DNA of 64,000 nt from positions 161,757-225,756 of IMG/VR virus record IMGVR_UViG_3300025389_000010. One strand, written 5' to 3'. Positions within the stretch are counted from its first letter, which is position 1; every line of letters begins with the position of its first letter. This document shows, in pieces, positions 11,210 to 16,765 of this stretch. The position numbers and the translations under genes were made by a program. The notes below the pieces were generated by a model. It did not search any database. It had not been told where the DNA came from and was given only the letters and a program-made list of their open reading frames with translations. The stretch comes from a virus (Duplodnaviria; Caudoviricetes).

Positions 11210-12403
11210 ATGAACAAATACACAAACAGGGAAGAGCTTAAAGCCGAAGTTTTAAAGCTTAATTCTGAAGGCAAAACAAACTCTGAAATATCCCAATTAT
11301 TGGATATCCCTAGATCAACCGTATATGATTATATTACGGGTAGAAGAAGAGGTGTCAAGAAAACCACCATCATAGAAGAAGAGGAAACTTTTGATGATAA
11401 TGACATTCCTATTGATGTTATTACAGAAAACGAACCAGATCCTTATTATGATCCGGTAGATAACATAATGGCTGGTGTTCCATATATGAGTCCTGTTGAA
11501 TTGAGGAAAAAGAAGATTGAGGATTTCCTTAACAATAGGGAATGGAGAGCTTATACGCCACCACAGGTTACTTTTAAAGAGGAAGCTAACGAAATTGCAC
11601 TGGTTATCGGTGACATGCATTTTGGTGTCCATTGTGAAAAGACTTTGAATATCTTCTATAAGGTAGTTCAGGAAACAAAGCCATCCAAGATTATTCTTAA
11701 CGGTGACACTCTTGATCTTTTGGCTGTCAGCAAGTACACAAAAGATCCTCGTTATACACACGGTATTATGGACGAGATCAATGCATTTCATGACTTCTTG
11801 AAGATTATTCATGATATTACGGCAAATTACGGAACGGAGATTCTTGAGACCAACGGTAACCACTCTGGTAATGGTATTGAAGGTCGTTGGTGGAGATATT
11901 TCTCAACCAGCAACGAAATTAAGGAACTTCTCAATATTCCTTGGGTTGCAGAGAGCTTGAGTTACCAGAGTGTATTTCATCCTAAATGGGAATGGTCTCG
12001 CTTGAAATTAGTTGAAGCTGACAATCAAAATGCATCAATCGTAGAACTTCCCGGTGAGTTATTTGTGTTCCATAGTGATATCGCCAGAAAGAACGGTGGT
12101 ATGTCTGCTCGTGGAAACTTTGAAAAGCATGGTGTTTCTTCAATTACCAACCATACACATCGTATTGGTTCAACAATGCAGAGGGCACCGAAGTTTGGTT
12201 CCAAGAAAGAAAAGATCTATAAGAACTATGAAAATGGTTGTGCCTGTTTGCTTAACCCAACGTATGTCACAAGTGCCAACTGGCAGAATGGTTTTTCAAT
12301 CGTAAACTACAATACAAAAGAAAACATAAGCGGTGTCGAGACCGTCGAGGTTGAGGATGGCAAGGCGGTAGTTTGTTCGCTCGGCAAGACCATAACAGCG
12401 TAA
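11210..12403 (+). CDS. HTH-fused calcineurin-like metallophosphoesterase
   Basis: N-terminal HTH (SEISQLLDIPRSTVYDY); GDMHFG, LNGDTLD, GNH and HTHR metal-binding motifs. Confidence 0.85.
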   Translation: MNKYTNREELKAEVLKLNSEGKTNSEISQLLDIPRSTVYDYITGRRRGVKKTTIIEEEETFDDNDIPIDVITENEPDPYYDPVDNIMAGVPYMSPVELRKKKIEDFLNNREWRAYTPPQVTFKEEANEIALVIGDMHFGVHCEKTLNIFYKVVQETKPSKIILNGDTLDLLAVSKYTKDPRYTHGIMDEINAFHDFLKIIHDITANYGTEILETNGNHSGNGIEGRWWRYFSTSNEIKELLNIPWVAESLSYQSVFHPKWEWSRLKLVEADNQNASIVELPGELFVFHSDIARKNGGMSARGNFEKHGVSSITNHTHRIGSTMQRAPKFGSKKEKIYKNYENGCACLLNPTYVTSANWQNGFSIVNYNTKENISGVETVEVEDGKAVVCSLGKTITA

Positions 12404-12883: not shown

Positions 12884-12951
12884 ACTAATATTTATATAAT
12901 ATAAATAACATAAAAAAAGGACTAATAAATTAATATTAGCCCTTTTTAAAT

Positions 12952-13403
12952 TGGTGGAGGCGAGGGGAGTCGAACCCCTGTGTTTAATGTTGAGAAGTAT
13001 ATAATCTTCACATGTTTGGACAAACTTCGTACTTTGGTTGTCTAAAGGTAACGAGGTGTTGTCAACCTATCCATGTTTAGAGACCTACCTGTATGTGTGA
13101 TTAACGACCACATACCACCGCTTGCACTTATTTTCGAGTGTCACAAGTCCCACTCAACCTATTATGATTTACCAAAGGGATTAATAGGATTACCTTTGGT
13201 CCTTATGCTGCGAGGAGGGTCTCTTCCTCGTAACCACAGAGGAACTCTGCGGCGTTGTTGAGGATATAGTCTGCTTCAGCTAAGATAGCATCAGTATTAT
13301 CTTCTGCGTTTATTTGTTTCGATCAGCTTTTAAGGTAGCCAACTGATCAACTACCACATGCATACATAACATCTAACAATTAAGTCGAAGCCAGTACGCC
13401 CCC
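12952..13403 (-). ncRNA. ssrA: tmRNA with tag peptide AEDNTDAILAEADYILNNAAEFLCGYEEETLLAA (13203-13307)
   Basis: 5' GGGGGCG...TTCGAC and 3' GGGGTTCGACTCCCC-T-CGCCTCCACCA form an acceptor stem with G3.U70 and encoded CCA; resume context ATAAAC-GCA; tag ends LAA-stop. Confidence 0.95.
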
Positions 13404-13459
13404 AAAATTATTTATCAAAGATCTATATAAATCTTATAACAAAAATTATAAAAGTCAAC

Positions 13460-13490
13460 AAAAAACCCTCCTTATAAATAAGGAGGGCTT
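13460..13490 (-). terminator. Intrinsic terminator
   Basis: CCCTCCTTA/TAAGGAGGG hairpin with a T-tract on the minus strand. Confidence 0.75.
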
Positions 13491-13509: not shown

Positions 13510-13749
13510 TTAGGCGAATGATATGTTTCCGCTTGAGATAATTTCAGTAGCTCTTGCTAAAACAGAGTCATTCGACCATTCACCAGCAGCGGTATATTCC
13601 TGTTCACCTTGCCAAAGGACGATTCCACGAGGAATGCCTTTGATTCTGGCTATAATCTTTTTTTCTAAAAAAAGATCTCTAACTGTTTCTACAACAATTT
13701 TATCAATTGTTATTGATTGTGAATTTTGTAGGTTTACGGTTATTGACAT
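13510..13749 (-). CDS. Small fibre-associated protein, paralog A
   Basis: 79 aa; strongly similar to 13762-14001 (VRDLF.EK.IIAR.KG.PR.IVLW.G..EY.AAG.W.NDS). Confidence 0.75.
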   Translation of the reverse strand: MSITVNLQNSQSITIDKIVVETVRDLFLEKKIIARIKGIPRGIVLWQGEQEYTAAGEWSNDSVLARATEIISSGNISFA

Positions 13750-14828: not shown

Positions 14829-14836
14829 TATTTATA
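14829..14836 (-). promoter_or_regulatory. T4-type late promoter motif (representative copy)
   Basis: TATAAATA 5 nt before ATG. Same or variant (TATAAGTA, TAAGTA, TAAATA) motif precedes the starts at 406, 10668, 11120, 14478, 16478, 16765, 17800, 18514, 18955, 20962, 21921, 24081, 27398, 28574, 39963 and 55748. Confidence 0.75.
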
Positions 14837-16478
14837 CTTTAATAAACCAAGGAAGATTTAATATGCGTGATATAAAACCTCCTGTTGATATATTGTAATA
14901 TATCGGAGTACCCCAATTAAGAGATGAAATTGTATTTTCTAATGATGCTAACGAATTAAAATATACACCACCACCACAAACACCATTACTTCCGCTATTT
15001 TGTAATGTAGAATTATCGTAGAAATAAACATTACCGTTTATATAACCATTGCCATAATTAACATTATCATAAGAATTATTATAAAAATATGCATCACCAT
15101 AAATTGTATAATTATTACCAGAATTATCGTAAAATTTTACATTTTCGTTCACATACAATGTTAAACTATTAAGTGTAGAATTTTCATAAAATATTGCACT
15201 GTTTACATTAATTGATGGGTTTTGGTTGTATCCGGTTAATCCAGAACCGTATATGTGAATGTTTGATCCTGCATCTGGAAGATTTTGTGAACCAATTCCA
15301 ATTGGTCTTGATGTAAATGTTGTATCCGACCACCAGTTATTTAAATCATCCCATATACCAGTTGATCCACTTCCAGATACACTATCATTGAACCATTGTT
15401 CAACAACAGCAGGCCAGCCAATATATGTTACTGTACCAGTAACAATTCCACCAATTGGATATAAACCATTTCCGCTGGAATAATAAACAGTTGCATTTCC
15501 AGTAATTGTTCCGTAATTGTAAGAAGAATCAGTAAAAGATACATTTCCAGTAACATGACCATTTGATCCTAAAGAACTTTGATTATAAAAATAAAATGCA
15601 CCATTCCCGTTTGCATCAAAAACGTAACTATTAAAAACAGAAGCATCAGCACAACGACATACATGATCACCATATGTGTTTTGGGTAACATTACCATATA
15701 TTTGTGCTTCGGTAATATTTGTAGGGTGAGACGTTGCTGCCACAGTAAAAGTAGAATTTTTCCACCAATTACCCAAATCGCCCCAATCTCCATTATTATT
15801 TGCATTATTATAATACAAAACAGAAAATGGATAGCTATTACCAACACCAGCAGCATAAAGTGCCGAAACTTCGACAGAATTGAGTGCCCTGTTCCAGATT
15901 CCTATTTCATCCGCAAGACCAGTATATTCGTTATTTAAATTATTATCATTTGAACCAAAAAAACCAAGAGAAGTAAAATGTTGCGGAAATCCGTATGAAC
16001 CAACAGCACTAGAACCTATATTCGTATTATCCAAATAATATTTTGCAGACCCATCCGAATCTATCGATATTACAATATGATGCCAACTATCATCTAATAT
16101 ATTTATATTATAAAGATTACCCCAAATACTAAGTTTTGAACCACCAAACGCTTGTGTCATTCCAAAATCATAAGATGGAAACCCACCACCACTGGAATAA
16201 GTTGTAATAAAAACTTGTTGACTATCGGTTTGCGTAGAACTGGGTTTAACCCAAAAAGAAACACTAAAAGCATTAAAATCAGCAGGAAAATTTGCCTGTA
16301 AGTTTCTTGCACTACCATCAAAAATAGCACAACCACCAATCTTCCCTTGTGAGTAGAATGGAACATCACCGTTATTGGTTAATGTGCTACCGTTTGATGT
16401 GGAATCAAGAAGACTTAATCCACCACTTCCATCATTGTCAAGTTTCCAATAAGCTACAATTCCATCAAGCAATGACAT
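14832..16478 (-). CDS. LamG-domain tail fibre/adhesin with beta-helix-like repeats
   Basis: IVAYWKLD...DEIGIWNRAL LamG module followed by repeated GNV.F.D.S.NYG.I.G units and two W..L.NWW motifs. Confidence 0.75.
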   Translation of the reverse strand: MSLLDGIVAYWKLDNDGSGGLSLLDSTSNGSTLTNNGDVPFYSQGKIGGCAIFDGSARNLQANFPADFNAFSVSFWVKPSSTQTDSQQVFITTYSSGGGFPSYDFGMTQAFGGSKLSIWGNLYNINILDDSWHHIVISIDSDGSAKYYLDNTNIGSSAVGSYGFPQHFTSLGFFGSNDNNLNNEYTGLADEIGIWNRALNSVEVSALYAAGVGNSYPFSVLYYNNANNNGDWGDLGNWWKNSTFTVAATSHPTNITEAQIYGNVTQNTYGDHVCRCADASVFNSYVFDANGNGAFYFYNQSSLGSNGHVTGNVSFTDSSYNYGTITGNATVYYSSGNGLYPIGGIVTGTVTYIGWPAVVEQWFNDSVSGSGSTGIWDDLNNWWSDTTFTSRPIGIGSQNLPDAGSNIHIYGSGLTGYNQNPSINVNSAIFYENSTLNSLTLYVNENVKFYDNSGNNYTIYGDAYFYNNSYDNVNYGNGYINGNVYFYDNSTLQNSGSNGVCGGGVYFNSLASLENTISSLNWGTPIYYNISTGGFISRILNLPWFIKV

Positions 16479-16483
16479 ATTAT

Positions 16484-16765
16484 TTATACAATAGTTGTGG
16501 AGAGGTTTTGAAGATTATTACTTCCATCATATGTTATAGTAATTGTTGCAACTGTAACATTATTTAATTTTAAAGTAATATTTTGTGGTTTGTCTGTAGC
16601 AACATAATTAGTTGCTACAATTTGATCATATACTGGTAATTTCAATTGACCTAAATTTTGAACCGCTCTTGCATAAAAAGGTGCGTCACCATTGACTGTT
16701 ACCCAAGAATGATCGGCTGGTTCGTAATGAAGTTGTGCGTTTGCTGCTAATGGATCGAGTGACAT
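16484..16765 (-). CDS. Putative structural protein
   Basis: 93 aa; ATAAGTA upstream. Confidence 0.6.
   Translation of the reverse strand: MSLDPLAANAQLHYEPADHSWVTVNGDAPFYARAVQNLGQLKLPVYDQIVATNYVATDKPQNITLKLNNVTVATITITYDGSNNLQNLSTTIV

Follow-up and report, generated by a model that had tools for sequence, protein, structure and literature searches.

A T4-like phage tmRNA encodes a conserved 34-residue tag that resembles an ordinary degron carrying an inserted, predicted acidic helix

Introduction

The peptide tags encoded by tmRNAs are textbook short degrons. The E. coli tag, (A)ANDENYALAA, is bipartite, and in SspB-type bipartite tags the N-terminal residues bind the adaptor whereas the C-terminal LAA is recognized by ClpX. 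Tag ends of the ALAA type serve both ClpXP and ClpAP, with SspB contacting the N-terminal part of the tag (PMC3985003). A tag of 27 residues from Mycoplasma has been called unusually long and is directed to Lon (PMC8403727).

Phages carry tmRNA genes as well. They have been found in the mycobacteriophage Bxz1 group and in Bacillus phage G (PMC4131195), in huge phages surveyed with ARAGORN (PMC7162821), and, again by ARAGORN, in 402 of 18,146 phage genomes, where those of aquatic phages are mostly two-piece RNAs, among them the tmRNAs of Melnitz and the pelagimyophages (PMC9004378). These tmRNAs have been proposed to sustain hijacked translation or to serve in amino acid recycling (PMC4131195, PMC7162821, PMC9004378). 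An extended, conserved tag is not described in these three studies, and our literature searches found no paper on long conserved tags of phage tmRNAs.

Here we analyze a tmRNA gene which, like the known phage examples (PMC4131195, PMC7162821, PMC9004378), resides on a large phage. With E. coli-type SsrA it shares an acceptor stem with a G3-U pair, the T-arm, the CCA end, pseudoknot PK1, the GCA resume codon, a tag that ends in LAA followed by TAA, and further covarying helices. Its tag has the polar, acidic start and the hydrophobic LAA end of a standard tag. The RNA is, however, 452 nt long compared with ~320-385 nt for a standard tmRNA, and the tag comprises 34 codons rather than ~8-14. Further differences from the E. 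coli type are a predicted amphipathic helix of ~23 residues inserted in the tag, the location of the gene on a lytic-type, T4-like phage without SmpB, and the failure of ARAGORN to see the RNA. The phage tag resembles the long Mycoplasma tags in that residues far from the C terminus are thought to carry recognition (PMC8403727, PMC3985003). The Mycoplasma tags, in contrast, end in AFA and accompany the loss of ClpXP, whereas the phage tag keeps LLAA as its most constrained part; the two have no sequence similarity, and the phage tag is phage-borne.

Results

The window that we analyzed, a stretch of 64,000 nucleotides, corresponds to bases 161757-225756 of a 225,756-bp IMG/VR record that CheckV rates as 100% complete. 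The major capsid protein is of the T4 type (Pfam Gp23, E 1.3e-90) and only 33-35% identical to those of the nearest cultured phages, the T4-like cyanophages, which places the phage in a deep, uncultured T4-like lineage. Rfam cmscan locates a complete, one-piece tmRNA of 452 nt in the window (RF00023, 93.3 bits compared with a gathering cut-off of 47 bits, E 4.7e-35, model positions 1-374 of 374; Table 1). This full-length match within a T4-like phage genome bears out the initial annotation of the locus as a phage tmRNA; the strand had not been given there and is minus according to cmscan. In this window the gene is isolated, with a terminator-like hairpin on each side and no tRNA closer than ~27 kb; in most sister phages (L046, L019, L058, L063, L041, and L067) the tmRNA lies within a tRNA cluster, with tRNAs 4-27 nt away. 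Neighboring genes encode an HTH plus metallophosphoesterase protein (11210-12403, plus strand) and a 548-residue protein with a LamG/ConA-like domain (14832-16478, minus strand); none of the four small ORFs that lie between 13510 and 14823 matches Pfam or PHROG.

Table 1. Features of the tmRNA locus (window coordinates)
Feature	Position	Strand	Evidence
Intrinsic-terminator-like hairpin directly after the CCA end	12914..12947	-	14-pair stem and T-run
Complete one-piece tmRNA	12952..13403	-	RF00023, 93.3 bits; sole tmRNA in the 225,756-bp record
T-arm, 3' acceptor strand, discriminator A, and encoded CCA	12952..12978	-	Identical 27-mer in 59 viral contigs
Stop codon TAA of the tag frame	13203..13205	-	Each of the 34 distinct complete sister ORFs ends in TAA
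Tag reading frame, 34 sense codons	13206..13307	-	Translation; pN/pS 0.27 in frame (20 sister ORFs)
Resume codon GCA	13305..13307	-	Aligned to the Rfam consensus resume codon; U at -5, A at -4; coding signal begins there
Pseudoknot PK1 (RNA positions 49-83), two interleaved stems	13321..13355	-	Both stems covary
5' half of the tRNA-like domain: acceptor strand GGGGGCG with G3, then D-loop analogue	13385..13403	-	Acceptor pairs invariant and G3-U kept in 7/7 relatives
Conserved leader TCTTTGATAAATAATTTT abutting G1, with T4-late-promoter-like ATAAATA at 13409-13415	13404..13421	-	TCTTT[GAC]A in 28/30 and ATAAATA in 15/30 leaders
Sigma-70-like TTGACT (13458-13453), 16-nt spacer, TAAGAT (13436-13431)	13431..13458	-	9/12 match, chance-level count
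Terminator-like hairpin and T-run, ends upstream ORF 13510-13749	13460..13487	-	9-bp G+C-rich stem, 4-nt loop, six T; read from sequence, unlisted by consensus scan

The tRNA-like domain contains a 7-bp acceptor stem with G-U at pair 3 in seven of seven relatives, and its T-arm and CCA end are invariant. A G3-U70 pair is the identity element for alanine. Both PK1 stems have changed on the two sides, helix 4 in three of five pairs and helix 5 in five of six. Over the whole proposed structure, which covers the acceptor stem, helix 2, both PK1 stems, three further helices, and the T-arm, 94.3% of the cells pair in seven diverged relatives, compared with 38-55% in a control in which the 3' partners were slid by 1-3 columns. 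Changes on both sides affect 32 of the 55 pairs, and none of 500 shuffles reaches the observed values. The structure of the tmRNA is under selection, far beyond chance, and the RNA has every sequence and structure feature of a one-piece tmRNA; the tag, usually short, is here 34 codons long. The 27 nt at the 3' end recur in 59 viral contigs, ~27 of which hold full tmRNAs of 403-453 nt; the remaining contigs, which have no recognizable 5' end, are probably att-site fragments.

Translation of the tag frame from GCA (13307-13305) to TAA (13205-13203) returns, letter for letter, the 34-residue peptide proposed initially, about three to four times the usual length. A shorter tag would result if translation resumed at a downstream codon, as that annotation had allowed for: several in-frame GCN codons follow the first GCA, and ARAGORN chooses a later start for one distant relative (L027). 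The Rfam resume codon, however, aligns with the first GCA, and the peptide encoded by codons 1-7 is near-invariant (T, S, or I at codon 5 is the exception) with synonymous-only variation at four codons. In addition, U at -5 and A at -4 correspond to the positions of U85 and A86 in E. coli tmRNA (PMC2481249). Because codons 1-7 differ almost only at third positions among 20 sister sequences, we assign the start of translation to the first GCA and regard resumption further downstream as extremely improbable.

The frame closes with LLAA followed by TAA, retaining the LAA-type degron end that had been noted, and the peptide is acidic as described, with a net charge of -9. AlphaFold2, run on a nine-sequence alignment, predicts helices at residues 5-17 and 19-33 (pLDDT ~90 over residues 1-20 and 78 overall), in agreement with the helical character suggested before. 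Hydrophobic residues cluster within ~140 degrees of the helical wheel, and the 18-residue hydrophobic moment is modest (muH 0.39, shuffle p ~0.05 for this tag). We find a self-similarity peak at an offset of 14 residues (mean BLOSUM62 +0.30 versus -0.3 to -1.4 at other offsets), with p<0.05 in 24 of 31 tags and p=0.11 for this tag; such an offset would fit a heptad periodicity, an old 42-nt duplication, or both.

Judged from its sequence, the tag looks like an ordinary bipartite tag, consisting of an AEDNxDA start and an LLAA end (~11 residues when joined), that has been split by an insert. The AEDNxDA start is invariant across the sister tags, and LLAA terminates 21 of the 31 distinct tags, the others being xLAA-like. 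The insert is predicted to form an amphipathic helix that is conserved and acidic, spans ~23 residues, and has a 7/14-residue period. Profile searches with the tag returned no useful match in the PDB (best E 1.5) and a score below the useful range in the ESM Atlas (0.88). A T4 capsid-targeting leader and a prohead-protease site were considered as matches to the tag and rejected, because the key residues are not spaced as such a match would require.

Five sister phages of 185-225 kb (L015, L019, L041, L053, and L058), whose capsid proteins are 68-71% identical to that of this phage, have tmRNA tags of 34-35 codons. A search with an explicit IUPAC pattern, composed of the tag start and a D-A-[IL]-L-A core, recovered 35 more copies from metagenome contigs. 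Sister phages and metagenome contigs yield 34 distinct complete frames of 31-34 codons, all ending in TAA. For the 20 distinct frames with 34 codons, the pooled pN/pS is 0.27 in the tag frame versus 1.29 and 1.86 in the other two; by segment, it is lowest in the last four codons (0.09), followed by codons 1-23 (0.23) and codons 24-30 (0.40). Sixteen positions keep their residue throughout, although the codons vary. RNA hairpins within the tag region are short and weakly supported, and thus RNA structure does not explain the conservation of the tag. On the evidence of these alignments the long tag is a trait of a T4-like phage clade and is selected as a peptide. Since the clade keeps it as a peptide, the long tag probably has a role beyond marking proteins for destruction.

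The tightly held tag length (31-34) and the lower constraint on codons 24-30, the least constrained segment, would also suit an insert that is a passive spacer with no specific partner. Such a spacer could bring the degron clear of the exit tunnel, whose length is ~34 residues, or of a folded domain, or the lengthening could act at the RNA level. A spacer would not, however, preserve 16 invariant residues, a hydrophobic face, and the strong constraint over codons 1-23; moreover, RNA pairing inside the frame is weak, and the wrong frames are free of constraint. We therefore consider a passive spacer quite unlikely and favor an insert that docks to a partner, as developed under "Discussion."

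Tags of 30-35 residues with the D-A-[IL]-L-A core also occur in phage-type DNA that has no match to a T4-type capsid protein, for example in L006 (158 kb, with terminal repeats) and L063 (200 kb). In group C (L044:1059-9603, L006, L027, and others) the tags have 30-31 residues and the RNA ~405 nt. The group C tmRNA is flanked by genes for a UvsX-like recombinase and an HNH endonuclease; DnaB, primase, and a split PolIII-alpha follow downstream, and the module also contains an exonuclease. Its position inside a phage replication module makes this tmRNA phage-borne. One carrier is classed as a provirus, and we had considered a host gene beside a prophage; the replication module and the L006 record rule this out. 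A 436-kb phage record (L026:1981-2341) holds a 361-nt tmRNA with the same acceptor ends and an ordinary 10-residue tag, and the long tag is thus not tied to this tRNA-like domain.

Among 50,697 GenBank phages, searched by blastn and tblastn, neither tag type was found, and matches to the RNA are confined to at most its last 33 nt. ARAGORN reports five tRNAs in the window and misses the tmRNA; overall, it fails on seven of the 12 tmRNAs that we extracted (this gene and six relatives). As ARAGORN is blind to this RNA, the published surveys (PMC4131195, PMC7162821, PMC9004378), which used ARAGORN or older tools, probably missed the clade.

The tag pattern matches 49 phage or metagenome copies and two places in 185,579 species genomes (one genome per species). 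One of the two (L066) is a chance match without a tmRNA. The other (L067, = G001:C248, 1-1407) is a contig of 1,407 bp that was binned into a MAG from Lake Lanier, a GTDB species representative. This contig has the tRNA-tmRNA-tRNA layout of phage L046, a PHROG-family neighbor, and a GC content of 36% compared with 46-48% for the rest of the MAG, and is read here as a mis-binned phage fragment on these grounds. The T-loop of its tmRNA is unusual, with GGCAGTT replacing TTCGACT. A tag profile detected nothing else in 400 genomes of the same phylum. Of 151 genomes from this phylum, 129 contain a tmRNA over the cut-off; the chromosomal tmRNAs measure 317-385 nt, and 30 translated tags, all from this one phylum, have 7-13 residues, mostly 8-9 (e.g. 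ANDNYALAA and GNDYALAA). BLAST of the whole phage RNA against the bacterial tmRNAs of the phylum aligns only the last 30 nt.

These results bear on the possibility, raised with the initial annotation, that bacteria of the host lineage carry the same tag, the phage having simply copied a host ssrA with nothing phage-specific about it. Acquisition of host tmRNAs by phages is on record (PMC9004378), and the tRNA-like ends together with AUAAAC before the resume codon are also present in bacterial tmRNAs such as L111, the tag of which has eight residues. The sharing of one core by the long tags of unrelated phages could also reflect several captures from one bacterial group. Against inheritance stand the single real copy in all of the species genomes, which sits on a phage-like contig, the profile search of 400 genomes, the ordinary size of the RNAs and tags in the sampled phylum, and the restriction of similarity to the 3' end. 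With a narrow pattern and sampling of one phylum, no bacterium with the tag was found, and we judge inheritance from the host lineage very unlikely. Taken as a pointer to the host lineage, as had been suggested, the tag gave no indication of the host. In one MAG (G131; loci L145 and L146), a resident tmRNA of 347 nt with a tag of 7 residues is accompanied by an extra 452-nt tmRNA with a different, 30-residue tag. The extra copy (L145, = G131:C91:3417-3868) is located on a 6.5-kb contig of 68% GC without PHROG matches and may belong to another long-tag mobile tmRNA family.

The complete phage genome encodes no detectable SmpB, SspB, ClpP, Clp/Hsp100 ATPase, or Lon; control genomes gave a match each time. 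Without its own SmpB, the phage must obtain SmpB, AlaRS, and EF-Tu from the host, and all known partners of the RNA and the tag must thus be host proteins. No known adaptor that the extra residues might recruit or block, as suggested initially, is encoded by the phage. Provision of SmpB by the host is the situation of many phage tmRNAs; it is the system that requires SmpB, whereas the RNA gene as such does not.

That the phage encodes no protease and strongly conserves a docking-type helix could also indicate that the tag is not mainly a degradation signal. It might instead be a decoy that jams host proteases or adaptors and protects phage proteins, or confer another fate such as sequestration; as a precedent, a phage tmRNA reduced to the tRNA-like domain has been proposed to titrate SmpB (PMC4131195). 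The LLAA end, in contrast, is the most constrained part of the tag, as expected if ClpX-type recognition still matters. We consider a tag that mainly serves purposes other than degradation unlikely.

Upstream of the tmRNA, dual promoters had been proposed. Of these, the sigma-70-like pair is present, with a match of 9/12, and occurs at chance level (six such matches in the sequence versus 4.3 +/- 2.2 in shuffles); TAAGAT recurs at varying distance in L058 and L041. The late motif fares better: ATAAATA lies 5 nt before G1 and is kept in half of the distinct leaders (15/30), always 4-7 nt (mode 5) before G1. The most conserved leader element is TCTTT[GAC]A, found in 28 of 30 distinct leaders and persisting where a tRNA directly precedes the tmRNA (L046 and L067). 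It falls outside the T4 late consensus and could alternatively be a processing signal. The leader word has one more copy in the genome, within a coding region, which probably arose by chance. Bacteroidetes-type promoter motifs were also considered and rejected, as they would put the start within the RNA; the ribosome-binding site of gp23 is AGGAGG. Flanked by a terminator-like hairpin on either side, the tmRNA is, as far as the sequence can tell, a unit of its own.

Discussion

The tmRNA described here is a real phage gene, and its long, predicted helical, acidic tag is selected as a peptide and, as far as we have sampled, does not occur in bacteria; any binding partner of the helix and the mode of transcription are matters that we infer. 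A 34-residue tag that is under purifying selection in a clade of large aquatic phages, absent from the bacteria tested, and composed of an ordinary tag plus a helix argues for an extra function that phages have conferred on trans-translation.

Our working model, to which we give about an even chance of being right, is a functional phage tmRNA whose ordinary tag carries an inserted docking helix. Charged with alanine, the RNA would enter stalled ribosomes as in established trans-translation; translation would resume at GCA (13307), and the nascent chain would gain Ala plus 34 residues. The insert, in our best guess, would provide an added docking surface by which tagged chains are tethered to an unfoldase, protease, or adaptor of the host, or to a phage protein that has escaped recognition. 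The phage might thereby dictate how rescue products formed during infection are captured and cleared, faster than host-tagged chains or by another route, and their clearance would free ribosomes and recycle amino acids.

More tentatively, and with doubts that outweigh our confidence, the scheme may extend to several unrelated groups of uncultured phages, which would use a tmRNA to attach a conserved docking helix with the D-A-[IL]-L-A core, in addition to the degron, to every chain rescued in the course of infection. The products of stalled translation, host as well as phage, would go to a partner of the phage's choosing: they might enter another protease route, act as a decoy by saturating proteolysis in the host, or be passed to a phage protein.

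If correct, this wider scheme would give phages a new, additional means of controlling protein quality control in the host, one hidden from ARAGORN-based annotation. Surveys based on this program undercount phage tmRNAs. The conserved tag is a peptide that can be tested directly.

A T4-type late promoter has TATAAATA at -10, no -35 element, and a box ending ~5-6 nt before the start. At the tmRNA, 5 nt separate the end of GATAAATA from G1, and TATAAATA occurs 24 times in the window, an enrichment over the 9.1 occurrences expected. The spacing of ATAAATA as in T4, together with this enrichment, makes it plausible that a late promoter directs initiation to the mature 5' end of the tmRNA or to a position next to it; late transcription could then begin there directly. 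Further copies of TATAAATA on the minus strand (12889-12896, 14829-14836, 16481-16488, and others) are often at gene junctions, ~5 nt before the next ATG, an arrangement that would leave late mRNAs with a very short leader or none; the copy at 14829-14836 overlaps the upstream stop codon.
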